DNA of 64,000 nt from an uncultured Pseudomonadales bacterium (GCA_964430265.1 CAYSEI010000002.1:20769-84768); one strand, 5' to 3'; numbered from the stretch's first letter, positions 10,814 through 42,697 are shown. Made by a program: numbers and translations. Notes: generated by a model from the sequence alone, not told the origin.

Positions 10814-10876
10814 TTTCCTGTATATTTTATCACGCTTTCTTGTCAAGGCAAAATAACTGTGTTATTATCTATTTGA

Positions 10877-26333: not shown

Positions 26334-27835
26334 AAATAAACTACAAATATTTAACTTTTGAAGTGCTAATTCTAATTTTAATTCTTGGATTACCTTTGTT
26401 GCTAATGTATCAGAGTATAGGCAAAAAAGGACCAACAATTGATGAACAAAATACATATATTCCAATAGTAGAAAATTTAATTCAAGGAAATAAATATTAA
26501 AATATATCCAAGAGCTATTTTCATCCACCATTGTCTTTTTATATTTCCTCTTTGACCTCTAAAATTTTTAAAACAAAAACATCTAGAATTACAATGTTGT
26601 CTGTTTTTATAACATTAGGAGTATTTTTTTTCTATGTTTCTAAGGCTAGCTTTAATAAGCTAACGGCTTTTTTATTATTGTTAATATATGCTTGGTTTCC
26701 GGAAATTTTAGCTCATTCTCGCTTAATAACGCCTGATATGACATTAGCATGTACGACTTTTATTTATCTTTATTTCTTATATTTGCTTTTGCAAAAGCAA
26801 AACTGGAAAAGAACTTTGTTTACGGGGCTAAGTTTAGGACTGGCTTTTATAAGTAAATATACAGCTTTAATGTTGATCCCTATCTCTTTATTATTACTTT
26901 TTGTAAATTTAATAAAACCCAAAAACAATATAAAAATGAAAATTTTTAGTTTGTTTGTAGTAATAATAACTGCTTTGTTTGTTATTAATTTCAGTTATAA
27001 TTTTCAGCAAAGTTTTTCTTTACCTGAATTTGAAAGTAGAACTTTTCAAAGATTAGAATCAAATCTTATAACTAATAAATTATTAAAAACAACACCATCT
27101 TTATATTTAAAAGGCTTAGATTTTCAACTTTATCAGTCAAGTTTGGATAATAGAAGAAATTTTTTTATGCAGCAAAGATCGTCCAAAGGAATTCCTCAAT
27201 ATTTTATTGGAACTTTTTTATTTAAAACTCCTTTACCGCTGTTAATTTTATTCTCAGCTAATATTTTATTTATAATTTTTATAAGTAAGGAAAAAAACTC
27301 TTTGCATTTTTTAATTCCGGTTTTGTTCTTTTTTGTTTACTTTAGTTTTTTTAATAATTTAAATATTGGTTTTCGTTACTTACTGATGATTTATCCATTA
27401 CTTATTTTTAGTTTAGGGGAATTTTTTGATTACATTTGCAAACAAAAAAAACAAATTTTTAAAATTATTCTTTTTTTATTGATAGCTTGGAATATATTAG
27501 AAACAATCAAAATACACCCTCATTATTTAGCTTATGCTAATCAATTAGCAGGAGGACCTCAAAATGGATATAAAATTTGGGCAGATTCTTCATTAGACTG
27601 GTTTCAAGACAATGATGCTTTTGGTAGATATTTAGACAAGAAACAGATTGATATCCCAATTGATCCACAACATCCTATTTTAGGAAAATTTGCTGTAAGT
27701 GTTTTTTCAATGAATAAAGAGAATTATTACGAATATCAGTGGTTAAGAGATTTAGAAAAAAAGCCTGTTGATCAATATGGATATACATGGTTAATTTTTG
27801 ATATAACAAAAGAAGATTTAGGGAAAATAGATTAA
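26330..27835 (+). pseudogene. GT-C (ArnT/PMT_2-like) glycosyltransferase gene interrupted by a single in-frame TAA at 26498-26500. It is either a pseudogene, a sequencing error or a recoding site.
   Basis: A 56-aa upstream ORF (MKINYKYLTFEVLILILILGLPLLLMYQSIGKKGPTIDEQNTYIPIVENLIQGNKY) lies in the same frame as the 26531 ORF. Reading through the TAA gives ...GNKY*NISKSYFHPPLSFY..., which restores the canonical TM1, DE-loop and HPPL N-terminus of GT-C enzymes. The ATG at 26330 overlaps the upstream TGA stop (ATGA). Confidence 0.55.
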
Positions 27836-27849
27836 ATAAATACTAATAA

Positions 27850-29502
27850 ATGAATAAGAAAATAAGAATACTGATACTTTTAATTTTTTTTACTTTAGGT
27901 TTAGTTTTAAGATTGTATAAATTAGGGTTAATACCGCCCGGTACTAATTGGGATGAAACAGTCGTTGGTTATACCGGTTATTCAATTCTAAAAACTGGGA
28001 AAGATGAATGGGGGAAAAAAATACCTATTTTTACTAAAGGTTTTGGTGATTATCGTTCCGCGGTATATTCTTATCTAACGACTGTTCCTATTAAGATATT
28101 TGGATTAACGCCTTTTGCTATACGGTTTCCTGCAGCTGTTTTAGGTTCAACCGGAATAATTGCCTTTTATTTTTTAATAAAAAATTTATTTGAATTTTAT
28201 AACTTAAAGGGGAAATCAAAGAATATCGCTGTTATTGGTGCGTTTTTATTTACAATTAATCCTTGGAACTTCTTTTTTAGCCGTTATGGCTTTGATGTGA
28301 GTAGTTGTTTTATATTTGGATTGTTCTCACTGACGTTTGTTTTTTTATTTTTAAACAAAAAAAAATATCTGCATTTATTTTTTTCAATTATTTTTGCTTG
28401 TTTAAGCATATATAGCTATCATAATGCAAGAATTGTGATTCCTTTTGTTTTTTTATTTTTATTTGTACAGAATTTTTCTATATTTATTAAAAATAGAAAG
28501 CAAATAGCATTAGTTTTTTTAACGGGTATTCTTTTATTTTTGCCTTTTTTGATATATGTAAAAACAGGCTTTCTATCAATAAGAACAAAAGAGCTTTCAA
28601 TATTTTCTAATTATTGGAAAAAACATGAATTAGAAAAATTACTAGTAAAAAGCACATTTTTAAGAAGTTTTGCTTTTTTTTATAAATATTTTTTTTACTT
28701 TCAGGAAATATTTAAAAATATCTTAAGAAATCTTTCTTTAAAATTTCTTTTCTTAGGAGAGGATTTACATTATCGTTTTGGAATTAAATACTACGGAAGG
28801 TTTTTATATCCTAGTTTAATTTTTTTGTTTTTAGGACTTTTCAAAATATGGACCAGGAATAAAAAATTGTTTGCTTTTTTAACATCTTTTATTTTAGTAT
28901 CTACGTTGCCAGCGGCATTAACAGTAGACAGCCCTCATCCTTTAAGAGTATATTTTCTTTTAATTCCTTTATTAATAATCATAACTTTTGGTATTTATTA
29001 TTCATTTAAAGGAAAAGCTATTAAATTTAAGCGCAGATTCTTAACAGGTGCTTTTATAGTCTATATGTTGTTTTTATCTTTATATATAAATGCTTACTTT
29101 AATTTTTTTAATGAGGAAGCGGATCAAAATTGGCAGTATTTTTATAGAGAATTAGTAGAATCTATAGATAATCAGTATAAAGATTATAATAGGATTTTAT
29201 TTGATATTCATTGGGGACAACCACATATATTTATGTTTTTTTATCAAAAAATAGATCCTTTAATTGTACAAAAAGAAATGAACAGAAAGGATCAGCTTAG
29301 CGAATCTCGTGGGGTTGTTAGCAGATTTCAAAATATTCATTTCAAAGATGTCCATGAGAGTGATATATTAAATTGTCATAATTGTTTAATAATTGAAGAT
29401 GAAAAGAGAACAAAGTTAGAGAAAAATAAAGTTGTAAAGGAATTAGAAAACATAAAACTGAATAACGGAAATACTATTTTTTGGATATATAAAACGATAT
29501 GA
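27850..29502 (+). CDS. GT-C fold glycosyltransferase, family 39/83-like (ArnT/PMT_2).
   Basis: The first loop NWDETVVGYTGYSILKTGKDEWGKKIPIF, a polytopic N-terminal half and a C-terminal soluble region. Confidence 0.7.
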   Translation: MNKKIRILILLIFFTLGLVLRLYKLGLIPPGTNWDETVVGYTGYSILKTGKDEWGKKIPIFTKGFGDYRSAVYSYLTTVPIKIFGLTPFAIRFPAAVLGSTGIIAFYFLIKNLFEFYNLKGKSKNIAVIGAFLFTINPWNFFFSRYGFDVSSCFIFGLFSLTFVFLFLNKKKYLHLFFSIIFACLSIYSYHNARIVIPFVFLFLFVQNFSIFIKNRKQIALVFLTGILLFLPFLIYVKTGFLSIRTKELSIFSNYWKKHELEKLLVKSTFLRSFAFFYKYFFYFQEIFKNILRNLSLKFLFLGEDLHYRFGIKYYGRFLYPSLIFLFLGLFKIWTRNKKLFAFLTSFILVSTLPAALTVDSPHPLRVYFLLIPLLIIITFGIYYSFKGKAIKFKRRFLTGAFIVYMLFLSLYINAYFNFFNEEADQNWQYFYRELVESIDNQYKDYNRILFDIHWGQPHIFMFFYQKIDPLIVQKEMNRKDQLSESRGVVSRFQNIHFKDVHESDILNCHNCLIIEDEKRTKLEKNKVVKELENIKLNNGNTIFWIYKTI

Positions 29503-30743
29503 AAATTTGGATAAAAACTCTAGTTGTATTTGGAATTTGTTTGCTAAGTTTATTATTGCGTTTTAAAGTCTTTCCATACAAAACTCATTGGTCGGACATG
29601 TTTTTTTGGAAGGACTGGGGAAGAGGAATACTTGAATATGGTACTAAAGGTTTTTATAAACAATTCGGCTCAGATTATCTACCATTTTATCCGCTTGTTT
29701 TGGGTGTAGTTAAAACAATTTATAATTATACACACGAACTTCTTAATATAAAAGATATTTATTACTACAAATTTCCCGCGGCAATTTCCGATATTTTTTT
29801 TGGTTATTTAATTTTTAGATTTTTAAAGGAAGTAAAGAATTATAAAGCCGGAATTTTAGGAATGATTTTATTTCTTTTTAATCCCGCTGTATTTGCAAAC
29901 TCAAGTATGTGGGGGCAAGTGGATGTGATAGGTACTTTATTTTTATTTGCCGGTTTTTATCTTTTATATAAGAAGAAATATTGGGTATCCGGATTGTTTT
30001 TGGGGTTATCTTTAGTTACTAAAGCCTTGTATTTAATAGCTATCCCGTATTTATTTTTACTATTTTTTAGAAAAGAGGATTTTTACATAAATATACATAG
30101 GAAAATTCTTAAAAAATGTTTCTTAGTTTTTCTGGGAATATTAGTTTCAATAATAGTTATTACTTTGCCTTTTGTAGAAGGTGGTCTTTTTGCAGTTTTT
30201 AAGTTTTTGTTTGAACGCTATAAGATTATTAGTGAAAGATATCCTTATACTTCAGTAAATGCATTTAATTTTTGGGGATTGGTGGAAAAAGAATTCTGGC
30301 TTTCTGATAAAAGAGGACCTTCCTTTTTGACTTATAACAAATGGGGAACACTAATTACTCTTTTATTGATTGCAGCTGTTTATATAAAAGGTTTTTTAAA
30401 TGCAATAAGAAAAAAATGGTTTTATTCTTTAGTTTTGGGGATATCTTTATTATTTTATTCCAGTTTTTTATTTTTGACCCGGATGCATGAACGGCACTTT
30501 TTTTATGTTATTCCCTTTTTAGCAGTTGCTGCGGTTATTAAGCACAGATTAATAATTGCTTATTTAATTACTAGTTTAACTTACTTATTAAGTTTGCACT
30601 TTGCTCTGGAATATTATTATCAGGCCAAAGCATATGTTTTTTCGTCTTTGCAGATCAATTTAATCAGCGGAGCCAATGTACTAGTGTTTTTTTGGTTATT
30701 GTTTGAGTTTTTACTTTTGACAAAAAATGAAAAAAAAATATAA
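29499..30743 (+). CDS. GT-C-like polytopic membrane protein, paralog A of a three-member tandem family.
   Basis: Shares YKFPAAISDIFFG, YPYTSVNAFNFW and LFLTRMHERHFFY motifs with the next two ORFs. Confidence 0.6.
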   Translation: MKIWIKTLVVFGICLLSLLLRFKVFPYKTHWSDMFFWKDWGRGILEYGTKGFYKQFGSDYLPFYPLVLGVVKTIYNYTHELLNIKDIYYYKFPAAISDIFFGYLIFRFLKEVKNYKAGILGMILFLFNPAVFANSSMWGQVDVIGTLFLFAGFYLLYKKKYWVSGLFLGLSLVTKALYLIAIPYLFLLFFRKEDFYINIHRKILKKCFLVFLGILVSIIVITLPFVEGGLFAVFKFLFERYKIISERYPYTSVNAFNFWGLVEKEFWLSDKRGPSFLTYNKWGTLITLLLIAAVYIKGFLNAIRKKWFYSLVLGISLLFYSSFLFLTRMHERHFFYVIPFLAVAAVIKHRLIIAYLITSLTYLLSLHFALEYYYQAKAYVFSSLQINLISGANVLVFFWLLFEFLLLTKNEKKI

Positions 30744-31938
30744 AAAACTTCTTATTTATTTAATAGTTGGATCAGTTATTTTAGTTATCCGCTATATTCT
30801 CAGTTTAAGAAAATATAATCTAGACATCTTAAATCATGCAGTTTGGACAGAAAAAGCCTTAGCTGATGGATTAAAAGGGTATTATAAAAGAATATATTCT
30901 CCCTATGCAGAAGCAAACTATCCGCCTTTTGCAAACCTGCTTTTTTATTTGTCACATAAAACTTATAGGATGCTAGGTTATTCCGGAGGTTTGAATAATC
31001 TTTTGGCTGCTTTTTATAAAATTCCTTTGATAATTGCTGATTTAATAATTGTTTTTTTATTGTTTAATATTTTTAAAAATAAAAAGAAAAAATTTAAAAA
31101 ATATTTTTATCCTTTCTTTTTTTTAATTAATATTGCTTTAGTTTATAACAGTGTTTACTGGGGGCAGTTGGAAAGTGTGATAACCCTGTTTTGTATGCTT
31201 TCCTTATATTTTCTTTTTAAAGAACCCAATTTATTAGCCTATGTTTTTTTTGCTTTGGCAGTTCTGACAAAACAGACAGCACTGGTTTTAACGCCGCTGT
31301 TTTTTTTACTCAGCTTAAAAAAACTTAATATAAAAAAAACAATTGTAGGAATGGGAATAATATATTTGATCATTTTTATCTTTTTTATTCCTTTTACAGG
31401 CAAAATTGATTTTTTTTATCCAGTGAGATTTTATTTGCAAACTTCAGGCGGACAACTTCACCAGAATCAAGCGACCGTAAATGCTTTTAATTTCTGGTTT
31501 TTATTAGGACAAAACAAAATTTCAGACAGCACCACCCTTTGGAAGTTGATTGATTATCGTCTGGTTTCAATTCTGATATGTTTATTATTTTTCTTGCCGA
31601 TATTAATAAAAGTATATAATAAAAAGCCTAAAATAATTTCAGTTTTTAAAGCTGCAGGACTTTTATTTTACATAGTCTTTCTTTTTTTAACCCGGATGCA
31701 TGAAAGGCATCTTTATCCTGCATTAGCGTTTTTAATTCCCGGTTTAAATTCAATTATTAGTCTATTATTGTATGTTATAATTTCATTTATACATTTTTTT
31801 AATATGGATTTTGTTTGGCAGGAAATGATGGCAGATCCTATACCTTCAACAATTTTTAAAGGTAAAATAATGGCAGGGATTCTTTTAGCAATGTTCGTTT
31901 ATTTTTATACAAATTTTTTGATAAGAAAAGAAAAATGA
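30727..31938 (+). CDS. GT-C-like polytopic membrane protein, paralog B.
   Basis: FYKIPLIIADL, QATVNAFNFW and LFLTRMHERHLYPAL motifs. Confidence 0.6.
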   Translation: MKKKYKKLLIYLIVGSVILVIRYILSLRKYNLDILNHAVWTEKALADGLKGYYKRIYSPYAEANYPPFANLLFYLSHKTYRMLGYSGGLNNLLAAFYKIPLIIADLIIVFLLFNIFKNKKKKFKKYFYPFFFLINIALVYNSVYWGQLESVITLFCMLSLYFLFKEPNLLAYVFFALAVLTKQTALVLTPLFFLLSLKKLNIKKTIVGMGIIYLIIFIFFIPFTGKIDFFYPVRFYLQTSGGQLHQNQATVNAFNFWFLLGQNKISDSTTLWKLIDYRLVSILICLLFFLPILIKVYNKKPKIISVFKAAGLLFYIVFLFLTRMHERHLYPALAFLIPGLNSIISLLLYVIISFIHFFNMDFVWQEMMADPIPSTIFKGKIMAGILLAMFVYFYTNFLIRKEK

Positions 31939-34406
31939 TCTTATGGGTTTTAGGTATTAGCTTCTTATTTCGTTTGTTTATTGCTCAATATGGCACTTTG
32001 CAACTGGATATGAATGCTTTTATTTATTGGAGCAACCGTCTGATTCAAGTAAATTGGACTAGTTTTTATGAAGTCTGGTGTGATTATTTACCTACGTATT
32101 TATATATTCTTGCAGGTTTAGGCTATTTAAAGAATTTTTTCGTTTCCGTTGGAATTAATCTACCGGAATTTGTAATTTATAAATTGCCTTCGATTTTTGC
32201 AGACATCGGTATGGGTTGGATGATTCATAAAATATTTAAGCAAAATAATAAAAAAAAGCTGGGAATAATTGCTGCGCTTGTTTATTTGCTAAACCCGGCT
32301 ATATTTGGCAATTCAACTTTATGGGGACAAGCAGATAGTTTATTTGCTTTTGCAACTCTATTAAGTTTTTATCTTTATTATAAAAAAAATTATTTATCTG
32401 CCAGTATGTTATTGGCGGCTACAAGTTTACTTAAACCTTTAGGATTTTTATTGGTACCAGTTTTTGTTTTTGATCTTTGGAAAAAAGAGAAAATAAAAGA
32501 AATAATCTATTCCGGTACAGTTTTTATTCTTTTTTCTTTTCTGCTTTTTTTGCCTTTTTCCAGTGGAAACATGTTAAATTTTATAATTTCTAGATTTTCA
32601 CAAACCTTTAACCAGTACCCTTATACTACTCTTAATGCTTTTAATTTCTGGCAGTTTCTTGATATGAACTGGGTTAAAGACTCGCTTAAGTTTATTGCGA
32701 TGAGCTATCAAAACTGGGGGATAATATTGTTTGCGCCTTTTTATTTTACTTTTTTAAAGCAGTTTTCCCAACAAAAAAGTATTTTTAAAAAGAGTTTAAT
32801 AATCGGTTTGGTTTTCTATTTTAATTTTTTGTTTACCACCCGAATGCATGAAAGACACTTGTTTACTGCCCTGCCTTTTTTACTGCTAGGAATGGGAGAA
32901 GATAAAACAATCGGATTTTTTTATGTTTTAGCTTCTTTAACTTACAGTTTGAACCTTTATTATGCCTGGCGTTCAATTGAAAAAAGGAATTTTGTTTTAA
33001 GCAGTTTTTTAATTAAAACACTTTCTTTAACAAACATTTTAAACGCAATGGCTTTATTTTTAAAAAATTCATTTGCTTTTATTAAAAACAATTGTGAAAA
33101 TTTATGCAGTAAAATATCTATTCTAGTACAGAGAATTGGATTAAAATCCAAACAAAAAAAATTAAATTATGAGAATATATTTTTATTAATTTTTGTTTTG
33201 TTTATTTTGTTTACCCGCTTTTATCAACTGGGTTATCCGCAAGACTATATTTATGATGAGGTTTATCATGCATTTACTGCCGGAGAAATGGCGGAAGGCA
33301 ATGTTAAAGCATGGGAATGGTGGAATAATGCACCGGAAGGCTTTGCATATGAATGGACCCATCCTCATCTTGCTAAGATTCTTATGTCTTTAGGAATCAA
33401 GGTTTTTGGTAATAATTCGTTCGGATGGCGGTTTGGTTCTGCTGTTTTTGGAACCGGAGTAATATTATTAACCTATTTGTTAGGTAAAGAAATATTTAAA
33501 AACAAAAAAATTGCTGTTGTTGCTGCTGTTCTGTTTTCTTTGGACGGAATGCTTTTAACAATGTCAAGAATTGGAATGACTGACGTTTATCTGGTATTTT
33601 TTATCCTTTTGACAATTTTATTATCCCTTAAAAAAAGAATATTTTTAGCATCCGTCAGTTTGGGAATGACAATCGGAGCCAAATGGACAGGGATTTATTT
33701 AATTCCCATAATAGGGTTAATATTAATTTGGAAGCAAGAAAAACATGACATCTTCAGTAAAAGCCTTTTAAAAAACATTTTGACATTTGTGTTTATAACA
33801 CCACTGGTTTATACAGCAACATACTTGCCTTTTTTTCTTACAGAACACACATTAACTCAGTTTTTTGAATTACAAAAAAGCATGTGGGGATATCATACAA
33901 AGCTAAAAGCAACCCACGGGTTTCAATCAGAAGCATATACTTGGCCGTTTATGATCAGACCTGTCTGGTTTTGGGTAGATTATCAAAAAAATAAAATAGC
34001 CAATATTTATAATTTAGGTAATCCTTTACTTTGGTGGAGTAGTTTAACAATTTTGCCAATATATATTTATCGTAGTATTGAAAAATATATGGAAAAAAAG
34101 AAAAAGAACATGCTTATTTTAATACCTGCATATTTTGTGTTCTGGGTTCCTTGGATTTTTTCACCCCGAGTTATGTTTTTGCATCATTATCTTCCAGCAC
34201 TGCCGTTTTTGTTTCTTATGAATGCGTGGTTTTGGGTTAAAGAGATAAAAGAATTAGTAACTGAAAATAAAACCTATTATTTAATTACCCTAACTTATTT
34301 GGCCATTATATTTATTACCTTTTTATATTTTTTACCGATTTATATAGGAATTCCTCTGCCAAAAAATCGCCTTGATTGGTGGTTTTGGTTTTCAACTTGG
34401 AAGTAA
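31935..34406 (+). CDS. Fusion protein: an N-terminal paralog-C GT-C domain fused to a C-terminal PMT-family (GT39) protein O-mannosyltransferase-like domain.
   Basis: The N-terminal half has IYKLPSIFADIG, YPYTTLNAFNFW and LFTTRMHERHLF. The C-terminal half has DEVYHAF...THPHLAKIL...FSLDGMLLTMSRIGMTD, typical of the PMT family, and a PMT_4TMC-like tail YHTKLKATHGFQSEAYTWPF. Confidence 0.75.
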   Translation: MILWVLGISFLFRLFIAQYGTLQLDMNAFIYWSNRLIQVNWTSFYEVWCDYLPTYLYILAGLGYLKNFFVSVGINLPEFVIYKLPSIFADIGMGWMIHKIFKQNNKKKLGIIAALVYLLNPAIFGNSTLWGQADSLFAFATLLSFYLYYKKNYLSASMLLAATSLLKPLGFLLVPVFVFDLWKKEKIKEIIYSGTVFILFSFLLFLPFSSGNMLNFIISRFSQTFNQYPYTTLNAFNFWQFLDMNWVKDSLKFIAMSYQNWGIILFAPFYFTFLKQFSQQKSIFKKSLIIGLVFYFNFLFTTRMHERHLFTALPFLLLGMGEDKTIGFFYVLASLTYSLNLYYAWRSIEKRNFVLSSFLIKTLSLTNILNAMALFLKNSFAFIKNNCENLCSKISILVQRIGLKSKQKKLNYENIFLLIFVLFILFTRFYQLGYPQDYIYDEVYHAFTAGEMAEGNVKAWEWWNNAPEGFAYEWTHPHLAKILMSLGIKVFGNNSFGWRFGSAVFGTGVILLTYLLGKEIFKNKKIAVVAAVLFSLDGMLLTMSRIGMTDVYLVFFILLTILLSLKKRIFLASVSLGMTIGAKWTGIYLIPIIGLILIWKQEKHDIFSKSLLKNILTFVFITPLVYTATYLPFFLTEHTLTQFFELQKSMWGYHTKLKATHGFQSEAYTWPFMIRPVWFWVDYQKNKIANIYNLGNPLLWWSSLTILPIYIYRSIEKYMEKKKKNMLILIPAYFVFWVPWIFSPRVMFLHHYLPALPFLFLMNAWFWVKEIKELVTENKTYYLITLTYLAIIFITFLYFLPIYIGIPLPKNRLDWWFWFSTWK

Positions 34407-34410
34407 AGCC

Positions 34411-35013
34411 TTAAAACATTAAACCCAGAGCCATTAATAATGCGCCACCAATAGCCAATAAAATGGTTGGTGAAACAATGCCTGCTTCCGGCATTTCTTG
34501 CTGCGGTTCTACAAACTCGGGAGAAGGAGAAGCTTGAGCAATAAATACGCTTTCTTCCGGTGTTGGTTCAGGAGTTGGAGAAGGGCTTGGGTTTGGTTCC
34601 TCTGACGGTGATAAACTGGGTGATGAAGAGGGGGATATGTTTGGCGAAGGTGTTGGTGATGGACTTGGAGAGGGGGATGGCGACGGAGAAGGATTTAATG
34701 ATGGGATTGGACTCGGTGATGGTGATGGAGAGGGGGTTAATGAGGGACTTGGATTGGGTGAAATAGATGGAGAAGGTGATGGAAGAAGAGAAGGTGAGGG
34801 GTTGGGTTGACCGACTGTAAAAGATATTTCGCAGGTTCCGTCAGCTTGGTAAAATGTTTCCGGTTCTTTGGGTGCTTCACTGACTGCTGGCTTTGGTGAT
34901 TCTTCCGGAAGTTTCTTTGATTGATAAAGTTTAAAAGCAGTATAAGCAGCAACAACTGCTAAAACAATAGTTACTGTAATAATACTAATACTTAATACTT
35001 TGTTTTTATTCAT
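34411..35013 (-). CDS. Ser/Pro-rich repeat surface protein with a C-terminal sorting signal (MPEAG-IVSPT + TM).
   Basis: An N-terminal signal anchor. A tract of about 90 aa made of (N)PSPSxS repeats. The C-terminus EMPEAGIVSPTILLAIGGALLMALGLMF. Confidence 0.65.
   Translation of the reverse strand: MNKNKVLSISIITVTIVLAVVAAYTAFKLYQSKKLPEESPKPAVSEAPKEPETFYQADGTCEISFTVGQPNPSPSLLPSPSPSISPNPSPSLTPSPSPSPSPIPSLNPSPSPSPSPSPSPTPSPNISPSSSPSLSPSEEPNPSPSPTPEPTPEESVFIAQASPSPEFVEPQQEMPEAGIVSPTILLAIGGALLMALGLMF
34560..34800. repeat. Degenerate short tandem repeats encoding the (PSPS)n tract.
   Basis: Repeated ggtgatgg/ggagaggg-type units on the plus strand. The region lies inside the 34411-35013 CDS. Confidence 0.55.
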
Positions 35014-35015
35014 AT

Positions 35016-36359
35016 TTAATTACCCGATTTACTATTCCAGCCACCTGCCTTACCCCAATCTGTGCATAGAGGAAATCCTTCAGTTGCACAAGCTCTGCAC
35101 TGAACAACATATTCACCTGCTCTTGACGGCACTGTTAAAGTGGCAGGAACACTTTGTCCTAGATTATCACTGTCTTCAGCAATATCTGTGGCAAATTCAA
35201 CTGTTTGTGTATTTCCTTCTTCAGTAATAAAATAACGGAAATCATAAACATTTGTAGCGTTGTAGGATACATTTAATGAATTGTGTTTACAAACCAGTTC
35301 AATTTCATCCCCAAACTGGTATTCTTCTTTGACCGGAGAATATTCTAAATTATCACATACAAAGTTTTGTTCTAGTTCTAAGGAGAGAGAATTACTACAG
35401 GCGGTACAAGCAGTTGTTGCTGTATTACAATGTCCCCCCGGATTACCGGTACACCATAAATTTTTCTGATCAAAGACATTAGCAATAACAGTATATGTGC
35501 CAGGCTTTAAATTGGAAGTATCCCAAGTAACTTGGTTATCAGATTCATTAGGATCAGAAATTTTCTGCCATGAAGCCTTGCAAAAATCTCCGGTATCAGT
35601 AGTGTAATGAAAAGTTGTTTTTTGCAATTGACCTTCAGGATCACTGATGGTAGCAGTAAGCAATTTTTGATTGTCTCCTTCACCTGTGTTTGTCACACTT
35701 AAGTTTGTACAGTCAGGTGGTTGATTTGCAGGAGGTTCTATCCACATCCACCAAGTTTTAAGATTTTTTTCTTGATTATGACTATGGTTAAAACTAAAGC
35801 AATCTAAATAGTTATCATCATCATTGTCTGGAGTTTCCCATCCAGGATCCCAGGAATAGTCACCTCTTTTGGCATTAAGATCACCTTCATTGTCCGCACA
35901 TAACCACCAAAATCCTTCTTCAGAGTTTTCGGCTGCTGAAGGTGGAGCATATCTGCCTATTTCAGAACGCATGGGATGAAGATAAGAGCGACTACCCCCA
36001 CAGGAAAAATCAGCATCACCATCTTCGTAAAATCTTCCATCTTCATTTGTTTGTTTTAGTTTACACCACTGGGTATCACTGCAAGCATCCTCATTTTCAT
36101 AACCGCCACAACCTCCGTCTGTATTAGTTTTATCTTTATTTAGCATCATAAACTTTTCATCAGTAATTGGAAAAAAGGTTTCTGTTGCATTATCTTTATT
36201 CTTCATTAAGTTGGTATCGCATTTGTTTACACAGTTTGCTGCTCCTTCTTTACAAATCCATGCCCATCCGGTCCATTCCCAATAAGCAAAAGCAGAATGA
36301 GGTTTAAATATGAAAAAGAAGAAGATTAAAAAAAATGGTAAGTATCTTAATTTTTTCAT
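35016..36359 (-). CDS. Secreted Cys/Trp-rich protein with an Ig-like domain. Possibly an adhesin.
   Basis: A signal peptide MKKLRYLPFFLIFFFFIFKPHSAFA. About 28 Cys residues. An Ig/PKD-like segment NLKPGTYTVIANVFD. Confidence 0.6.
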   Translation of the reverse strand: MKKLRYLPFFLIFFFFIFKPHSAFAYWEWTGWAWICKEGAANCVNKCDTNLMKNKDNATETFFPITDEKFMMLNKDKTNTDGGCGGYENEDACSDTQWCKLKQTNEDGRFYEDGDADFSCGGSRSYLHPMRSEIGRYAPPSAAENSEEGFWWLCADNEGDLNAKRGDYSWDPGWETPDNDDDNYLDCFSFNHSHNQEKNLKTWWMWIEPPANQPPDCTNLSVTNTGEGDNQKLLTATISDPEGQLQKTTFHYTTDTGDFCKASWQKISDPNESDNQVTWDTSNLKPGTYTVIANVFDQKNLWCTGNPGGHCNTATTACTACSNSLSLELEQNFVCDNLEYSPVKEEYQFGDEIELVCKHNSLNVSYNATNVYDFRYFITEEGNTQTVEFATDIAEDSDNLGQSVPATLTVPSRAGEYVVQCRACATEGFPLCTDWGKAGGWNSKSGN

Positions 36360-36360
36360 T

Positions 36361-37530
36361 TTATTTAATTCTTTTTATTAAGTAATAACAACTGATATAT
36401 ATATCATCATTCACTTCAATATCATCGTCTAAATATTCACCGTCATAAACAGGAGCTATTTCGTATTCACCTATATTCATTGTTTTTGCTGTGTTTTTTA
36501 ATTCTTCATTTTGGCTATTATAAGAGTCGTTCCCGATATTTTCTTCAAAAGCAACAGTATAATCACTATTTTGAGAAGTTAATTCTTGTTTTTTTTGCTC
36601 ACAAAGTTCAGAAAAGTTTTCTCTGTTTTCAGCTTTTTGTTTAATATCTTCCAATACGTTTTGAGTTTCTTGTTTTAATTGTTCTACCGGACTTATTGGT
36701 GGTTTAACGTTCCAAAAGCATATTCGACATTGATCTACCCAGGCAGAGCTTTCATCAACAGTTTTTGTTTTGATTAAAGCTGGATCGGCTTGAGATATTG
36801 GTTTTACTTGCTTTTCACTTTCTTGTTCTTGTTGAGAGTCTTCTTTTTGTTCTAAAGTATTATTCTGATTTTTATTCTGAGTTTCTTGAATATAATTTTC
36901 ATTTTTACTGAATAAGAAAGAGAAATTCATTTTGTTTTTTAAAATAAAGAAAAAAATTGCAATTAAAATAAGAGTTATTAGTAAGGGTAATAGAAAAATA
37001 ATTTTAGGTATACCTTTTGATTTTTGTTTTTCAGGTGTTTTAATATCATTTGGGGAAGTGTTATCGTTGTTCTGAATTTTGTGTGGTTTCTGAGGTGTTT
37101 CTAATTCCTTGTCTTGATTACTTTGTTTATCAGGTGATATTTTGTCATTTTGTATATTGTTTGATTCTGTTTTTGAGGTTTCCGGATTTTCCTTTGGAAC
37201 AGTAGAATCAATTCCTTCTTTTTCAATTTGTTTATCTACAAAGTTATTAGATACACTTTTATTATTAATAGGTTTTGTTACTGGTTCTGAGTTTTTTTTG
37301 CTCTTGTTTGATTTTTTTTTATTATGCCCTTCCGATGTTTCAGAGTCGGTTTTATTAGTAGAATTATCAAATGTATTTTCCATATTTTTATTCATAGGCT
37401 TAGGAGGCTCTGTTATTTTTTGCCCATTATCTGGGTTAGATTTTAGACTTGAATTTATTGCTTTCTGTGCCTGCTCTTCAAGATTAGATAATGAGTTATT
37501 TGAATTATTTGTTTCTTTTTGTTTATTCAT
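36361..37530 (-). CDS. Low-complexity N/K/Q/S/E-rich protein with a single central TM helix.
   Basis: A central IPKIIFLLPLLITLILIAIFFFILK helix. The compositional bias creates an antisense ORF, which is rejected. Confidence 0.5.
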   Translation of the reverse strand: MNKQKETNNSNNSLSNLEEQAQKAINSSLKSNPDNGQKITEPPKPMNKNMENTFDNSTNKTDSETSEGHNKKKSNKSKKNSEPVTKPINNKSVSNNFVDKQIEKEGIDSTVPKENPETSKTESNNIQNDKISPDKQSNQDKELETPQKPHKIQNNDNTSPNDIKTPEKQKSKGIPKIIFLLPLLITLILIAIFFFILKNKMNFSFLFSKNENYIQETQNKNQNNTLEQKEDSQQEQESEKQVKPISQADPALIKTKTVDESSAWVDQCRICFWNVKPPISPVEQLKQETQNVLEDIKQKAENRENFSELCEQKKQELTSQNSDYTVAFEENIGNDSYNSQNEELKNTAKTMNIGEYEIAPVYDGEYLDDDIEVNDDIYISCYYLIKRIK

Positions 37531-37542
37531 TATTTAGCTTAA

Positions 37543-38976
37543 TTATTGCTTTTTATAACTTTGCTTGTCAATTGAAAAAGATATAAATGACCCTCCTGCA
37601 AGTAAAATTAATCCAAAGATCAGTGTAAAAAATGTAGGACCAACAATTCCAGTTTCTGGAACACCACTATCTGTTGCAGGCATAGTGGCTCTGCTATCTG
37701 GTGATGGAGAGGGTGAAGGCTGAGGACTAGGTGATGTTTGAGCAGATGGGGTAGCTGTAAACTCGGGTTCATTTTCGGATGTTTCTAATATTTCAAAACT
37801 ACGGCTAATATTTTTTTGTGATCCACTATCGTCAATATATGTAATAGAAACACTATTCCTTCCGGTTGTAAGATTTTGACTTGGCTGAAACTCCCAATTC
37901 TTCTCTTCATTAATAGTTACAGTTTTAACAATTTCAGGGTCTTCAATTTCAACTGTTAAGACTTTTCCGACTGGTCCAGTCCCTCTAAATCTGGGTTTTT
38001 GCGTTGATAATTTTTGATTTGCTTCCGGATAAGTTATTTTTACTGAATTAATTGTCTCCCCTGAGTTATCAACGGGATCTAGAGGAAAGCTTTCAGGGGT
38101 TTGTCCTCCAGTTTCTGGTTGTTCCTGCTCTGATTCACTGGGAACAACGTTCTCTTCGTTTTCGTTTGGCTTAGCTGCTAGTTGATTGTTCTCATCAGAT
38201 TCCGGAGTTTCTGTAAAATTATAAGAAGCTTGTGCAAGGTTTATTACTTGAGGTAAAGGGGAAATATTTCCAGAACTTGCAATTATATCCGTTTTTTGTT
38301 CTCCGCCAAAAACCTCTATACTAATAGTAGTGTTTTTTTCATCTATTATTGCCCAACTGCCTAAATCTTTGCTGCGGCTTTTATTAAGCATAAGTACCCA
38401 TCCACCTTGTTTGTCACTTAAGGTTGCTTGTGGTGCGCTGTTAGGAGTAGTTAAAACAACAATTGCTCCTTCAGCAGGAGATTTGTCTTGATTAATAATA
38501 GTTCCGCTTGCCATTTGTGCTTTTCCCGGACTTCCTAAGGACGGACCGGTAACAATTTCATATGAAGATCCTTCATTATCATATAAGTTTTCTTTGATCC
38601 CTGTTCCTGCTCCAATTTTAAAATAATATTTTTTTTCCGGTTCCAAGTTTTTAATAGTTGCCAGATGGGTTTTAAACTCACTTTTTTCTCCGCTTTGTTC
38701 ATCACGATTATCGTTTGCAACTTGATCCAGTTTTGACGGGCTCTCGCCGTATTTGATAAACCCGACTTCAGGCTTATCTGTTGTCCAGCTAACGGTAAAT
38801 TCATTATCAGTAACTGAACTTATACGAATGTTTTTAGGAGATGAGGTTGTGGTTGGGGTAATATTTTTTAAAAAAGAATTCTTTCCCAAGATAAAAACTG
38901 CAACTGCAATACCAGCAGCTAAAATTGAAAGCCCAATAAGAGTGGGAATTCTTTTTTCAAAAAAACTTTTATTCAT
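37543..38976 (-). CDS. FN3-domain surface protein with a C-terminal sorting signal (VPETG-IVGPT + TM + KKQ tail).
   Basis: The start is taken at MNKSFFEKRI (internal Met, 8-nt overlap with the upstream gene). An FN3-like block ISSVTDNEFTVSWTT...YYFKIGAG. A PSPQPSPSPSP linker. The C-terminus GVPETGIVGPTFFTLIFGLILLAGGSF...KQSYKKQ. Confidence 0.65.
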   Translation of the reverse strand: MNKSFFEKRIPTLIGLSILAAGIAVAVFILGKNSFLKNITPTTTSSPKNIRISSVTDNEFTVSWTTDKPEVGFIKYGESPSKLDQVANDNRDEQSGEKSEFKTHLATIKNLEPEKKYYFKIGAGTGIKENLYDNEGSSYEIVTGPSLGSPGKAQMASGTIINQDKSPAEGAIVVLTTPNSAPQATLSDKQGGWVLMLNKSRSKDLGSWAIIDEKNTTISIEVFGGEQKTDIIASSGNISPLPQVINLAQASYNFTETPESDENNQLAAKPNENEENVVPSESEQEQPETGGQTPESFPLDPVDNSGETINSVKITYPEANQKLSTQKPRFRGTGPVGKVLTVEIEDPEIVKTVTINEEKNWEFQPSQNLTTGRNSVSITYIDDSGSQKNISRSFEILETSENEPEFTATPSAQTSPSPQPSPSPSPDSRATMPATDSGVPETGIVGPTFFTLIFGLILLAGGSFISFSIDKQSYKKQ

Positions 38977-39436
38977 TTTGATCTTCGCTTTCTGTTTCTT
39001 GTTCAGTATTTGATTCGTTAGTCTCTTCAGTCTCATTTTGATTTTCCGTGTCTTCCTCTGCTAGTGTTTCCTCTTCTCCTTCTTGTTGATTGTTTTCTGT
39101 TTCTGCTTCTGCTTTGTTGTTTTGTTCTGCACTTGGAGAAGAACTAAGATCTATAAATTCGCTTGAGGCAGTAGATTCCTCATTACTGAGTTCCAGGTTT
39201 TCTATGGAAACAAGCTGTTTTACTGTATCCAATTTACCTTCGGTGATATGTCTTTTTTGTTTAAGTGTGTCAATTGTTGTTGTACTGAGTTTGGGATCTA
39301 TGGGTTTAATTAATTTTTCCACATCTTCTGGTATTTCAGGATTTGTCAAAGTAATATAAATTTCCAATCCAACCCAGATGAAAATTGTGATAAAGGTTAG
39401 GATAGCAGCAGTAATTATTTTCTTATTTTTTTTCAT
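38969..39436 (-). CDS. Bitopic protein with an N-terminal TM helix and an acidic low-complexity ectodomain. Possibly a PilP-like pilus accessory protein.
   Basis: An N-terminal TM anchor. An E/T/N-rich C-terminus. A 4-nt overlap with the PilO-like gene. Confidence 0.45.
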   Translation of the reverse strand: MKKNKKIITAAILTFITIFIWVGLEIYITLTNPEIPEDVEKLIKPIDPKLSTTTIDTLKQKRHITEGKLDTVKQLVSIENLELSNEESTASSEFIDLSSSPSAEQNNKAEAETENNQQEGEEETLAEEDTENQNETEETNESNTEQETESEDQNE

Positions 39437-40053
39437 TTTTCATACCAATATAAGTAACCGGTTATATTTAATTTTAGTATATTTTGATCAGAAGTGTCTT
39501 TTGAAGAAAAAGAAAAACTTTCTAATTGATAAATTCGTCGTAAATTTTCAATTTCGGAAATAAAATTTACCAGGTTTTGATATTCACCACTAGCTATGAA
39601 AGTATAACTAAGTTTATTGAGTTTAGATTCTGTTTGTTCTATATTAGAAGATTGAATTGCCTGAAATCCTTCTGTTGATCCAGTTTCTAATGCTACACTT
39701 TGTTCTTTTGCTAAAAGTGCGATTTTTTTTAAAGCAGAAATAAAATAGATTTTTTCGGGCAAGGCTTCGTTTAAATAAATAAAGTTTGGTTTTAATAAAT
39801 TATAATTTTTTTCAGCCTCTTCCAATTGACTAATTTTTGTACTAAATTTCTGACTGATTTCTTGCTTTCTTTTTATTTTGTTTTGCAGATCAGCAATTGT
39901 TCTAACAGTCGGTCTAATGGCGACTAAAGTGAAAAAAGAAATTACAAATAGGGTTAAAGCGATTTCCAATGTTGCTTTAGTAATCGGGTTTTCATAAACT
40001 CGACTTATTTTATCTAAATATCCTTGTGTGTATTTTTTGTAATCCCAGTCCAT
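39433..40053 (-). CDS. PilO-like type IV pilus assembly protein.
   Basis: A short cytoplasmic N-terminus, a single TM, a coiled-coil segment and then an alpha/beta domain. It lies immediately downstream of a PilN-like gene. Confidence 0.45.
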   Translation of the reverse strand: MDWDYKKYTQGYLDKISRVYENPITKATLEIALTLFVISFFTLVAIRPTVRTIADLQNKIKRKQEISQKFSTKISQLEEAEKNYNLLKPNFIYLNEALPEKIYFISALKKIALLAKEQSVALETGSTEGFQAIQSSNIEQTESKLNKLSYTFIASGEYQNLVNFISEIENLRRIYQLESFSFSSKDTSDQNILKLNITGYLYWYEK

Positions 40054-40054
40054 T

Positions 40055-40639
40055 CTATTCTTTTAAGTTTTTACTTTCTAAGTTTATATTAATAATAAAG
40101 TTAATTTTAGGGTCTTTTTTACCGCCAGAAGTAATATTTTCTAAACTGATTTCTTTAAATTGTTCTTGCTGTTTAAGTCCTTCAAGAAAAATCTTTAGTC
40201 CTTGTGTAGAAAAAGAATACCCGTTAATAATAATAGTATCAGCTTTTTTTTGCAGGTCTGTAAATACGATATCTTTGGGAGTTACCTTTGCAACTTCTTG
40301 AGGAAGTAAAGAAAGGTGCAAGTAATTAGAGTGTAGATTTTCGATTTCTTCAACTCTTTTCTGAGTATTCAGAAATTCCTTTTCAAAGTCTGCATAGGCA
40401 ATTACTGTTTCTTTTTTTGATTTAATTATTTGGTTAAGTTCTTTGTGTTCCAAATCTAATTTGAAACGGAACAAAAAACAGGCTACAGCTACTAACTCTG
40501 TAAATATAATAATATAGCGACCAATTTGAATTGCCCACTTTATTATTCTTCCACCTAAGGTTTTATCCAAACCTGTTTTTGGTACTAGATTGATTTCTTT
40601 ATTTCGGGCAGTATTCACATCTCTAGTATAAGGAGTCAA
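40055..40639 (-). CDS. PilN-like type IV pilus assembly protein.
   Basis: An N-terminal EINLVP motif (PilM-binding INLLP-like), a TM helix and a periplasmic coiled-coil with a C-terminal domain. Confidence 0.5.
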   Translation of the reverse strand: MTPYTRDVNTARNKEINLVPKTGLDKTLGGRIIKWAIQIGRYIIIFTELVAVACFLFRFKLDLEHKELNQIIKSKKETVIAYADFEKEFLNTQKRVEEIENLHSNYLHLSLLPQEVAKVTPKDIVFTDLQKKADTIIINGYSFSTQGLKIFLEGLKQQEQFKEISLENITSGGKKDPKINFIININLESKNLKE

Positions 40640-40670
40640 AATTGGTTTGTAAAGAAGAAGTGATAGAAGA

Positions 40671-40907
40671 TTACTTCTTTAATTTTTTAGCGAGTTTAGC
40701 TTTTAATCTTCCAGCCTTATTTTTGTGGATTACTTTCTTTTTAGCTGCTTTATCGATTTCCGAGTATGCAGCTTGTAGGGTTTTTTTTGTTGGTTTCTCT
40801 TCAAAGTTTTTTATTGCTTGACGGTGGGTTTTCTTGACTTTGATATTTTGTTTTTCCCGTCTTTTGTCTCTTCTTAGTGCTTTTTTTGCTGAACTAGTAA
40901 TTGGCAT
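40671..40907 (-). CDS. rpsT: 30S ribosomal protein S20.
   Basis: SAKKALRRDKRREKQN...HRQAIKN is typical of S20. The protein is 78 aa and basic. Confidence 0.85.
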   Translation of the reverse strand: MPITSSAKKALRRDKRREKQNIKVKKTHRQAIKNFEEKPTKKTLQAAYSEIDKAAKKKVIHKNKAGRLKAKLAKKLKK

Positions 40908-40993
40908 TTTGTATCTTGAATTTGGTATTATACATCCTGTATATTAACATTTCTATCTTTAAAATACAACCAGGATAATTTATCATATACAAT

Positions 40994-42697
40994 ATGGTAC
41001 TTAAATTTTTTAAAAAGACGTTTTTACCATTTTGGAAGAACGGAAAAGCACTATTAATAAGAAGACAAAATAATATCCTTTCTGCGGCAATGGTTTTAAT
41101 GGTAATGATCTTTTCCTCCGGAATTTTGGGATTATTAAGGGATCGCTTGCTTGCTGGATATTTCTTTGCGCAAGGTGAACAATGGAAGCTTGATATATAT
41201 TTTGCTGCATTTCGTCTACCGGATATGCTTTTTCAGATTCTAGTACTTTCTGCATTATCTGCTGCTTTTATTCCTGTTTTTAGCGAATATTTGACAAAAG
41301 ACAAAAAAGAAGCAAACTATTTTGCTTCTTTGGTCTTAAACATTGGAACAATTTTGTTTTTGTTTGTTGCTGCACTAGTGTTTATATTTTCTAACTTTTT
41401 AAACGGACTGATTACTCACGGATTTGAACCAGAGCAAATGCAGGTTCTTAACCAATTAACCAGAATGCTTTTAGGAGCACAGTTTTTCTTTTTGCTTTCC
41501 AATTTCCTGAGTGGAATACTCCAATCAAACCAGAGATTTTTAATGCCGGCCTTTTCTTCTGTTTTGTATAATCTGGGAATCATATTGGGAATAGTTTTTT
41601 TAACTCCTCCAATGGGAATTTATGGACCTGTTTTAGGCGTTATTTTTGGTTCATTTCTTCATTTTATTATTCAGCTTCCGATTGCAAAAAGATTAGGATT
41701 TAATTATCAGTTTGTATTTAATTGGAATCACCCGGGTGTAAAAAAAGTAGGTCGTTTAATGCTTCCCAGGGTTATTTCTTTTACTGTTAACCAGCTGCGG
41801 TTAAATGTGATTGTTTATTTGGCAACTACTTTAAGTTCTGGTTCATTGGCAATGTATAATTTCGCGCAACATTTAAATTCATTACCTGTTAGTTTGTTTG
41901 GTTTAACAATTGGTCAAGCTGCACTTCCTACACTTTCTCGGGAGATAAAAAATAATCTAAAGAATTTTTCTGATTTATTTCTTTCTTCTCTTTTACAGAT
42001 AATATATTTTGCTTTTCCTGTGGGAATAATCCTGTTAGTTTTAAGAGTTCCAATGGTCAGATTAGCTTTTGGAGCTAAAAATTTTCCTTGGGAGGCGACC
42101 CTAACAACTGCCAAAGTTGTGGGTGTTCTGTCAATCTTTTTAGTTGCTAAAAGTACAACTCAGCTTCTAATTAGAACTTTTTATGCAATTCAGGATACAG
42201 TTATTCCTCTACTTTTAAGAGTAATTAATGTTTTGATCAATATTGTACTGGCTCTTGTATTTATCTATTCAATGGATATGGGTATTGTAGGCTTGGCGCT
42301 TGCTGAGGGAATTGCAGAAGTGGTGTTTGCTCTTACACTATTTTTACTTTTACATGTTAAAGTTGGCGGATTAATAAAAAGGGATTTTTTGCTTTCTTTG
42401 GGAAAGATAGTTTTAGGAGTATTTTTAACAGCCTTGTTTTTATGGATTCCAATGCGGATTTTAGACCGTTTTGTTTTTGATACTACTCTTACCTTAAATC
42501 TAATTCTTTTAACAATAATAACCTTATTAATTGGTGGAGGAGTATATGTTTTCTTTTCCTTCATACTGGATATTTCACAATTTAAAAGTTTGCTTGCGGT
42601 ATTAAAAAGATTTGGCAAGTGGAAAGAAATATTGGCAGAATCAGGAGAAGTTTTTGAAACCAGTCAGCCAGCCTCATTGCCACCGGAAAAAGATTAA
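40994..42697 (+). CDS. murJ: Lipid II flippase MurJ (MviN).
   Basis: 14 TM segments and N-terminal motifs (LLGLLRDRLLAGYF, DIYFAAFRLPDMLF). Confidence 0.85.
   Translation: MVLKFFKKTFLPFWKNGKALLIRRQNNILSAAMVLMVMIFSSGILGLLRDRLLAGYFFAQGEQWKLDIYFAAFRLPDMLFQILVLSALSAAFIPVFSEYLTKDKKEANYFASLVLNIGTILFLFVAALVFIFSNFLNGLITHGFEPEQMQVLNQLTRMLLGAQFFFLLSNFLSGILQSNQRFLMPAFSSVLYNLGIILGIVFLTPPMGIYGPVLGVIFGSFLHFIIQLPIAKRLGFNYQFVFNWNHPGVKKVGRLMLPRVISFTVNQLRLNVIVYLATTLSSGSLAMYNFAQHLNSLPVSLFGLTIGQAALPTLSREIKNNLKNFSDLFLSSLLQIIYFAFPVGIILLVLRVPMVRLAFGAKNFPWEATLTTAKVVGVLSIFLVAKSTTQLLIRTFYAIQDTVIPLLLRVINVLINIVLALVFIYSMDMGIVGLALAEGIAEVVFALTLFLLLHVKVGGLIKRDFLLSLGKIVLGVFLTALFLWIPMRILDRFVFDTTLTLNLILLTIITLLIGGGVYVFFSFILDISQFKSLLAVLKRFGKWKEILAESGEVFETSQPASLPPEKD

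Follow-up and report, generated by a model that had tools for sequence, protein, structure and literature searches.

Why would two proteins of the type IV pilus assembly machine be encoded among envelope proteins, away from the rest of that machine? The question is raised by a 64,000-nucleotide stretch of DNA (hereafter the window) deposited under the name of an uncultured Pseudomonadales bacterium (GCA_964430265.1 CAYSEI010000002.1:20769-84768). On its minus strand, positions 34411-40639 hold a run of seven genes that starts with pilN and pilO and continues with five genes designated here g3 to g7. The initial annotation saw in this run PilN/PilO-like genes heading an operon of five surface or secreted proteins, and proposed that they may constitute a pilus-associated adhesin or attachment module, relevant to an episymbiotic lifestyle. 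All seven of the minus-strand open reading frames (ORFs) it described are present. Our analysis, which covered this single 64-kb window together with loci related to it, reveals a lineage-wide four-gene module, in which PilN and PilO are detached from the other pilus genes and coupled to g4, a protein with a membrane anchor, a predicted wall-sorting signal, and fibronectin type III (FN3) and immunoglobulin-like (Ig) domains.

The first two proteins of the run belong firmly to the PilN and PilO families, as judged by homology and by the predicted fold of PilN. Both matched the hidden Markov models (HMMs) of these families (PF05137, 42.4 bits against a cut-off of 22.8, E 7e-11; PF04350, 39.9 bits against a cut-off of 22), and the INLVP motif already noticed in PilN lies at residues 16-20. 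The I, L and P of this I-x-L-x-P motif are invariant across 14 aligned homologues, and an N-terminal I-[NE]-[LF]-[LIV]-P is kept in 43 of 50 homologues, whose mean identity is about 43%. A profile made from the 14 homologues matched the PilN chain of 3jc8, the model of the Myxococcus type IVa pilus machine. The AlphaFold2 (AF2) model of PilN, with a predicted local distance difference test score (pLDDT) of 81, comprises a disordered N-terminus harbouring INLVP, a continuous helix from residue 28 to 118 (transmembrane, TM, segment plus coiled coil) and a small beta-beta-alpha-beta-beta domain at residues 124-187. The best Foldseek matches of this model were the periplasmic domains of EpsL, XcpY and PulL (TM-score 0.74, root-mean-square deviation of approximately 2 Å); PilO of P. 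aeruginosa, PilN of T. thermophilus and PulM came next. The predicted topology of PilN is a cytoplasmic N-terminus, one TM helix, a long coiled coil and a small ferredoxin-like extracytoplasmic domain. PilO starts 1 nt after the pilN stop codon, has its TM helix at residues 26-44 and shows a conserved segment, FAI(R/K)PT..TI..L, after this helix (alignment of 16 homologues). In all related loci, pilO directly follows pilN.

In diderm bacteria, the INLLP-type N-terminal segment of PilN binds PilM, as in the PilM-PilN complexes of T. thermophilus and P. aeruginosa. This PilM-binding role is also described in PMC6916266. Conservation of the motif in the proteins studied here argues that a PilM partner still exists, and the motif and the homology together suggest that PilN would interact with it.

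Related loci were gathered by PilN-profile scans of species-representative genomes and of Joint Genome Institute (JGI) metagenomes, plus context look-ups for members of the g4 and PilN families, and HMMs built from the alignments were searched against all the ORFs of these loci. Profiles reached further than the word-indexed search, in which PilO alone retrieved two proteins only. The first relative (L001; related loci are numbered with the prefix L) carried rpsT-pilN-pilO-g3 at 27-35% identity. The final sample, 873 kb in total, comprised 100 loci with 83 distinct PilN sequences, all of the Candidate Phyla Radiation (CPR)/Microgenomates type. The genes pilN-pilO-g3-g4 were found in this order and on one strand in 43 of the 43 loci that extend at least 3.3 kb beyond the pilN start, and every apparent absence of a gene coincided with a contig end. 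Stop and start codons of the core genes overlap or abut (median spacings of +1, -4 and -4 nt). The order was kept where the upstream neighbour was not rpsT (L020) and where unrelated genes followed g4 (L019). No second pilN or pilO was present in any locus. Mean pairwise identity among 50 distinct complete modules was 43% for PilN, 35% for PilO, 34% for g3 and 44% for g4. The unit consists of two parts, an invariant core, pilN-pilO-g3-g4, and a variable tail. The idea of one functional unit is therefore strongly supported for the first four genes, while g5-g7 vary from locus to locus.

The third protein, g3, has an N-terminal TM helix with an invariant Trp, a conserved extracellular stretch of approximately 50 amino acids (aa) with the pattern ..P.L.P.LD..TI..I..R..I.E.EL, and a variable, often acidic tail. 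In every complete related locus, a homologue of 66-178 aa occupies the place between pilO and g4. It had no match in Pfam or NCBIfam, and its profile found nothing better than E 0.3 among Protein Data Bank sequences; by these sequence comparisons, g3 is outside every described family.

The fourth protein, g4, scored above the Pfam cut-offs (in brackets) with Pur_ac_phosph_N, 48.8 bits (30), fn3, 29.3 bits (25), and Big_13, 32.3 bits (27). Its AF2 model has a pLDDT of 81.6, with three beta-sandwich domains mostly above 90 (Table 1). A pentapeptide [VIL]Px[STP]G, followed by a helix and a basic tail, is present in 43 of 50 g4 homologues, VPDSG being the commonest version. The C-terminus of g4 has the layout of a three-part sortase sorting signal whose pentapeptide deviates from the canonical motif. 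An exosortase/PEP-CTERM-type signal was also considered, VPDSG being so common in g4, and was provisionally set aside in favour of sortase, because sortase is reported to be near-ubiquitous in Microgenomates (PMC6744442). The g4 family is discrete: word-indexed search scores of its members range from 302 to 619 bits and then drop to 136. A full-library profile search added many more members; among its top 150 matches, the full-length relatives measured 435-570 aa, the other top matches were giant Big_13 repeat proteins, and none was a fusion of g4 to g3, PilO or another protein of the module. Every g4 family member whose context was looked up adjoins pilN/pilO. Searches with the g4 profile and the g4 model returned generic FN3/Ig arrays only and no pilus protein. 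The homology region (HR) beta-sandwich typical of PilP/GspC was not found in g3 or g4 by Pfam, NCBIfam, the g3 profile, or the g4 profile and model. A pilin-like nature of g3, g4 or g7, suggested by their N-terminal hydrophobic helices, was rejected, since these proteins show no G/F-T-L-I-E class III signal.

Table 1. Coordinates of the genes and of the candidate promoter in the window, and of the segments of g4 (residue numbers of the protein).
Feature	Position	Strand	Description	Basis
Candidate promoter of the whole unit	40927..40955	-	TAGAAA-17-TATAAT, 10/12 matches, ~20 nt upstream of rpsT start	
rpsT	40671..40907	-	ribosomal protein S20, 78 aa	PF01649 match on homologues
pilN	40055..40639	-	194 aa, TTG start; alternative in-frame GTG at 40618	
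pilO	39433..40053	-	206 aa, bitopic	
g3	38969..39436	-	155 aa, pI 4.2, acidic, single N-terminal TM	
g4	37543..38976	-	477 aa, N- and C-terminal hydrophobic helices	
g5	36361..37530	-	389 aa, low-complexity N-terminal half, TM at residues ~171-189	
g6	35016..36359	-	447 aa, 20 Cys, secreted, signal peptide ending ..HSAFA before YWEW	
g7	34411..35013	-	200 aa, 47% P+S+T, TM at each end	
g4 TM helix	residues 10-37		preceded by conserved (K/R)-(I/L)-P-T	AF2 and alignment
g4 FN3 domain	residues 48-142		conserved DDRDQ.SG loop	AF2 and alignment
g4 second beta-sandwich	residues 155-254			AF2
g4 disordered linker	residues 267-308			AF2
g4 Big_13 domain	residues 313-396		Ig-like	AF2 and Pfam
g4 disordered linker, P/S-rich	between Big_13 domain and C-terminal helix			AF2
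g4 C-terminal helix	residues 446-476		VPETG just before; basic tail ..DKQSYKKQ	AF2

The window was described initially as devoid of PilM, pilin and ATPase genes, and this was borne out by the reading of its ORFs, two extra Pfam scans and motif scans. PilM, PilB, PilC, PilT and PilD were not found among all the ORFs of the window or by the two additional Pfam scans, and the T2SSE-type Walker A motif (G[PS]TGSGK[ST]) and the class III pilin motif are absent from every frame of the 64 kb. The scans for PilB, PilT, pilins and sortase used simple patterns aimed at very conserved signatures. In the 873 kb of related loci, the sole class III pilin-like ORF (MKSNTKGFTLIELLVVISIIG...) lies at 3-266 on the minus strand of L093, at a contig edge, with pilN 3.3 kb downstream of it. 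In L091 and L096, which are identical to L093 in all other respects, hrcA/dnaK are found at this distance, and the ORF may represent a strain difference or an assembly join.

The five genes downstream of pilO had been taken together as encoding surface proteins. This grouping needs to be divided: g3 and g4 are universal, and g4, the best conserved, resembles a machine part, whereas g5-g7 are variable and sometimes missing, with some relatives (L019, L022, L023 and L072) keeping pilN-pilO-g3-g4 without any variable gene. In Pfam and NCBIfam nothing scored above cut-off for g3, g5, g6 or g7. The g5 protein is a lineage-specific, low-complexity bitopic protein, without a BLAST homologue among the downstream genes of 15 related loci and without a family match. 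The g6 protein had been called a Cys-rich, Ig-like secreted protein; its Cys-rich character was confirmed (20 Cys), whereas the Ig-like character corresponds only to sub-threshold Pfam matches (E 0.04-0.4). Its terminal motif, QCxxC...CxxWG, is also found in the gene after g4 in 7 of 37 loci, and the g6-type family has 6 members among 16 loci. More generally, the gene after g4 encodes a Cys-rich protein (at least 8 Cys; range 8-40) in 28 of the 37 evaluable loci, and identity among the aligned copies is 25%, where g4 keeps 45%. These proteins are essentially unalignable between lineages, and some relatives have 27-40 Cys in this position (e.g. L075 12868-14355, L092 12841-14304 and L057 2940-4298).

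The g7 protein is composed of an N-terminal TM helix, a P/S-repeat region, MPEAG and a C-terminal TM helix, with no basic residues after the latter. The repeat is encoded by an imperfect 42-nt tandem array at 34646-34761. Seventeen of 37 loci encode a g7-type protein, which starts with a helix, in most cases contains a small Cys-knot domain, and ends in LP[EK]AG plus a C-terminal helix. The g7 of the window lacks the Cys-knot found in most of its homologues and carries the P/S repeat instead. The Cys-knot (CWDTC..D.DC....L.C.......RCVNP.C..E.DC.C) is conserved and matched no family. A role in adhesion or attachment would be plausible only for the variable tail, g5-g7.

What does the core do? 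A review of monoderm pili lists PilM, PilN and PilO as core assembly proteins, PilP and the secretin being missing, and treats as an open question how the pilus machine crosses the wall or is anchored in it, with the over-long PilO of Firmicutes as a speculative candidate (PMC6916266). We favour, with moderate confidence, the reading that pilN and pilO are the pair belonging to the pilus machine of a Microgenomates-type CPR bacterium. The pair would have been relocated and joined to g3 and g4 as envelope partners specific to the lineage, and variable surface proteins would have been added behind them. The pair would have been split from pilM, pilB, pilC, pilT, pilD and the pilins, and fixed in a translationally coupled operon, usually rpsT-pilN-pilO-g3-g4. 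The cytoplasmic INLLP-type N-terminus of PilN would bind a PilM encoded elsewhere, PilN and PilO would form the extracytoplasmic ring of the platform, and the small bitopic g3 would associate with this ring together with g4. With its N-terminal membrane anchor, three beta-sandwich domains, two flexible linkers and the LPXTG-like signal at its end, g4 would link the ring to the wall or to outer layers of the cell, or hold it at a distance from them. It would thus do the job of PilP and the secretin in two-membrane bacteria, as well as the job that has been speculated for the extended C-terminus of Firmicute PilO. The genes of the variable tail (in the window, g5, g6 with its many Cys, and g7 with its sorting signal) would encode surface-exposed passengers, possibly adhesins. 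Being universal and the most conserved protein of the module, g4 looks like a structural part of a machine and not like a diversifying adhesin. A pilus function of the module is suggested by homology and by the conserved PilM-binding-type motif rather than by gene context; PilN/PilO would form a physical complex with g3 and g4, and g4 may act as a wall tether.

Several results weigh against this reading. The pilus ATPase motif was absent within 10 kb of the module in 83 of 83 loci (ORFs of at least 100 aa, 873 kb), and a looser scan of the related loci for PilM-like N-termini found none; with no pilus core genes nearby, the link to the pilus lacks the support of gene context. Neither g3 nor g4 has detectable similarity to PilP, GspC or known pilus proteins. 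The NCBIfam anchor models gave no match for g4 or g7 at E values up to 1, and the sortase motif TLxTC is absent from the window (all frames) and from the ORFs of at least 100 aa in the related loci; sortase processing of g4 and g7 is predicted from their own sequences. The last point concerns the closed Microgenomates genome Ch65, in which a single type IV pilus locus was reported, with PilA, minor pilins, PilD, PilB, PilT, PilC and PilM listed and PilN/PilO not listed (PMC7143001); the supplements of that work contain nothing on PilN/PilO. Being an absence from a published list, this would fit pilN/pilO lying elsewhere in the genomes of this group. Across CPR, PilM, PilN, PilO, PilB, PilC and PilT occur widely (PMC6744442).

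That no pilus core genes lie near the module in the 83 loci is also an argument for a different explanation, namely that a repurposed PilN/PilO-like pair forms with g3 and g4 a pilus-independent membrane scaffold for the export, wall attachment or display of the co-encoded Cys-rich and sorted proteins, for example a platform for sortase-dependent or glycosylation-dependent surface assembly. The pair is always joined to envelope proteins with sorting signals, its neighbours include the wall/envelope genes murJ, PMT-type O-mannosyltransferases, LCP-family (LytR_cpsA_psr) and FemAB, and proteins of the PilN/PilO fold serve non-pilus machines too, such as GspL/GspM in type II secretion. However, had PilM been lost as a partner, one would not expect the INLLP-type PilM-binding motif to be conserved throughout the family; the 'cargo' genes are absent from some relatives that keep the four-gene core, and the pilus locus reported in Ch65 lists PilM without PilN/PilO. 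We consider repurposing rather unlikely. Similarly low is the confidence that we place in a CPR-specific, pilus-free membrane-to-wall scaffold made of the PilN/PilO-fold pair, g3 and the doubly anchored g4, which would organise the attachment or display of the hypervariable Cys-rich and sorted proteins. In a milder version, g3/g4 would be the wall-crossing or anchoring part of a monoderm type IV pilus machine.

The adhesin proposal of the initial annotation, in which the five downstream proteins would be adhesins or attachment factors shown with or on the pilus and the operon mainly a host-attachment module for episymbiosis, can draw on the FN3 and Big_13 domains of g4, a type of domain shared with S-layer proteins and with giant adhesins, SiiE among them. 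The Cys-rich, hypervariable g6-type proteins (25% identity vs. 45% in g4) would also fit surface exposure and diversification, and type IV pili mediate host binding in Saccharibacteria (PMC12206443). The proposal would be plausible for g6 and g7. As an explanation of the whole operon it is nevertheless unlikely: typical adhesins are not universal in the way of g3 and g4, nor better conserved than PilN/PilO, as g4 is; with an anchor at each end and an N-terminus that is not pilin-like, g4 cannot be part of the pilus fibre; g5-g7 are dispensable in some relatives; and no binding domain of known specificity was found. Finally, adjacency without functional meaning, with pilN/pilO simply lying beside unrelated envelope genes in a vertically inherited syntenic backbone, is highly improbable, since, although the wider neighbourhood (hrcA-grpE-dnaK-dnaJ, lepA, murJ, rpsT, PMT, LCP-family, UvrD and FemAB) is conserved too, the four genes overlap or abut and stay together in all 43 loci, including those in which both flanks are different (L020 and L012), and the rpsT linkage and the genes after g4 vary where the core does not.

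Comparison with known systems places the relocated pair of our favoured reading more precisely. As in the diderm type IVa systems PilM-PilN-PilO(-PilP-PilQ) of P. aeruginosa, M. xanthus and T. thermophilus, PilN and PilO are homologous and of the same size, share the bitopic topology with a coiled coil and a ferredoxin-like domain as well as the INLLP-type motif, and are encoded with pilO right after pilN. Unlike in those systems, there is no pilM upstream and no pilP/pilQ downstream, where g3 and g4 (unrelated to PilP and PilQ in sequence) are found instead; the unit is usually headed by rpsT, and other pilus genes were not found within 10 kb. With the pil locus of S. sanguinis and with the Saccharibacteria strain TM7x (pilM1N1O1 and pilM2N2O2), the organism has in common a single-membrane cell without a secretin, and PilM, PilN and PilO are expected in the assembly machine (PMC6916266, PMC12206443); in S. 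sanguinis and TM7x, however, pilM, pilN and pilO sit with the pilin genes and with pilB, pilC and pilT. The PilO of Firmicutes greatly exceeds PilN in length, whereas the PilO studied here has a normal length and the additional extracellular modules are encoded separately, by g3 and g4. The GspL-GspM-GspC set of type II secretion is similar in that the periplasmic domains of GspL are the closest structural matches of the PilN model and in that the pair is followed by a further bitopic protein (GspC there, g3/g4 here). It differs in that the locus has no GspL-type cytoplasmic domain, HR, PDZ, secretin, ATPase or pseudopilin, and in that the organism is a monoderm.

In its C-terminal part, g4 resembles the LPXTG proteins of Gram-positive bacteria, with [VIL]Px[ST]G, a hydrophobic helix and a basic tail after a P/S-rich spacer. 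(L/M)PEAG plus a helix in g7, and the same type of signal in a further protein of the window (4614-5093), are also comparable. The differences are the non-canonical pentapeptide, the lack of a basic tail in g7, the retention in g4 and g7 of a long N-terminal hydrophobic helix that is anchor-like rather than a cleaved signal peptide, the absence of a sortase gene among those found in the window, and the absence of an anchor HMM match. The protein at 4614-5093 (plus strand, 159 aa) is a surface protein with a signal peptide, a Big_13 domain, and MPTVG-IVSPTFFLL followed by a basic tail. The pattern P-x-x-G-I-V-x-P-T, common to g4, g7 and this protein, suggests one sorting enzyme with a genome-specific motif.

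The structure of the transcription unit was analysed from the gene boundaries. The lengths of four of the ORFs (194, 206, 477 and 447 aa) agree with public gene calls on the same sequence, and the g4 start at 38976 is backed by the NCBI call and by homologues, though the first in-frame ATG is at 39036. Intergenic spacings from pilN to g7 are +1, -4, -8, +12, +1 and +2 nt; the tight packing described initially (-1 to 8 nt) is real, with the g4/g5 gap slightly outside the range given. The spacing suggests that the genes of the module would be co-transcribed. By contrast, the placing of pilN and pilO at the head of the operon has to be revised. The rpsT gene lies 31 nt upstream of pilN on the same strand, a scan found no terminator-like site in the spacer, and rpsT is upstream in most related loci: on a strict count it immediately precedes pilN in 54 of the 74 evaluable loci, and in seven more it is close by on the same strand; if artefacts of ORF starts are allowed for, the count is about 61 of 74. 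This indicates that pilN is probably not the first gene of the transcription unit, and that rpsT probably is. The promoter upstream of rpsT is a candidate only, as the 29 promoter-like sites found in the region are near the 24.5 expected by chance; in such AT-rich DNA the promoter and terminator scans run at chance level and do not decide the operon structure.

The spacer between rpsT and pilN (40618-40670, minus strand) contains a promoter-like sequence, TTTACA-17-TATACT, at 40653-40625, the -10 element of which ends 7 nt before the in-frame GTG at 40618. A start at this GTG gives a PilN N-terminus equal in length to that of the homologues, and pilN could possibly be translated from it on a leaderless transcript. 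No clear Shine-Dalgarno sequence was present at any of the seven genes, and the only hit of an Rfam scan of the window was one tRNA. The GC content ranges from 26 to 38% and is higher at 34-36 kb; horizontal acquisition of that part was considered and rejected, the GC being attributed to the P/S-repeat and Cys-rich coding sequences and the synteny being vertical. The longest lepA ORF (TTG at 42612) overlaps the murJ 3' end by 86 nt (42612-42697), and the conserved LepA N-terminus starts near the internal Met of 'MKKDRIRNF', which suggests that the true lepA start is probably later.

Other envelope genes surround the module in the window. Six membrane glycosyltransferase-like genes run from 25140 to 34406 on the plus strand and converge on the module; four of the six match PMT_2, PMT or GT87, and those at 25140-26333 and 29499-30743 have no Pfam match. 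The last of them (31935-34406, plus strand, 823 aa) matches PMT and PMT_4TMC, is of the protein O-mannosyltransferase type, and has its stop codon 4 nt from that of g7. The same PMT-type gene stands beside the module in L002, L004, L006, L014 and L019. Linkers rich in P/S and P/T, such as those of g4 and g7, would be typical targets of O-glycosylation. A further PMT_2 gene is located at 14191-15666 (minus strand). Two more genes of the plus strand encode envelope or surface proteins: the product of 813-2936 has 707 aa, an N-terminal TM helix and a Beta_propel domain (PF09826), and that of 10840-11838 is a lipoprotein-like PEGA+SH3_3 protein with an acidic linker. Another set of genes recurs 0-3 kb downstream of the module in L005, L008, L017, L019, L020 and others: the gene for a flavoprotein (amine-oxidase/NAD_binding_8, about 405 aa) and, after it, those for PMT_2 and DUF2298 membrane proteins. 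This set is absent from the window.

The closest relatives of every protein of the window come from metagenome-assembled CPR genomes, and those that are meaningfully named are Microgenomates, Chisholmbacteria, Gottesmanbacteria or 'Patescibacteria group'. The gene order shared with these relatives comprises hrcA-grpE-dnaK-dnaJ, lepA, murJ, rpsT, the cluster itself, the PMT-type glycosyltransferases, LCP-family (LytR_cpsA_psr), UvrD and FemAB. Several species-representative metagenome-assembled genomes with the module (L002, L005-L008, L011 and L012) bear the title 'uncultured Pseudomonadales', 'Gammaproteobacteria', 'Bathyarchaeia archaeon' or 'Lentimicrobiaceae'. In gene content and synteny they resemble Microgenomates, and these titles therefore seem to be mislabels or placeholder names.

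Type IV pili are considered to play a central part in host attachment and DNA uptake by CPR bacteria. The module built around g4 is a concrete candidate for the missing link between the pilus machine and the wall in monoderms. Censuses of pilus genes that rely on co-located genes will miss pilN/pilO in Microgenomates. The hypervariable Cys-rich surface proteins encoded after g4 are candidates for host recognition.

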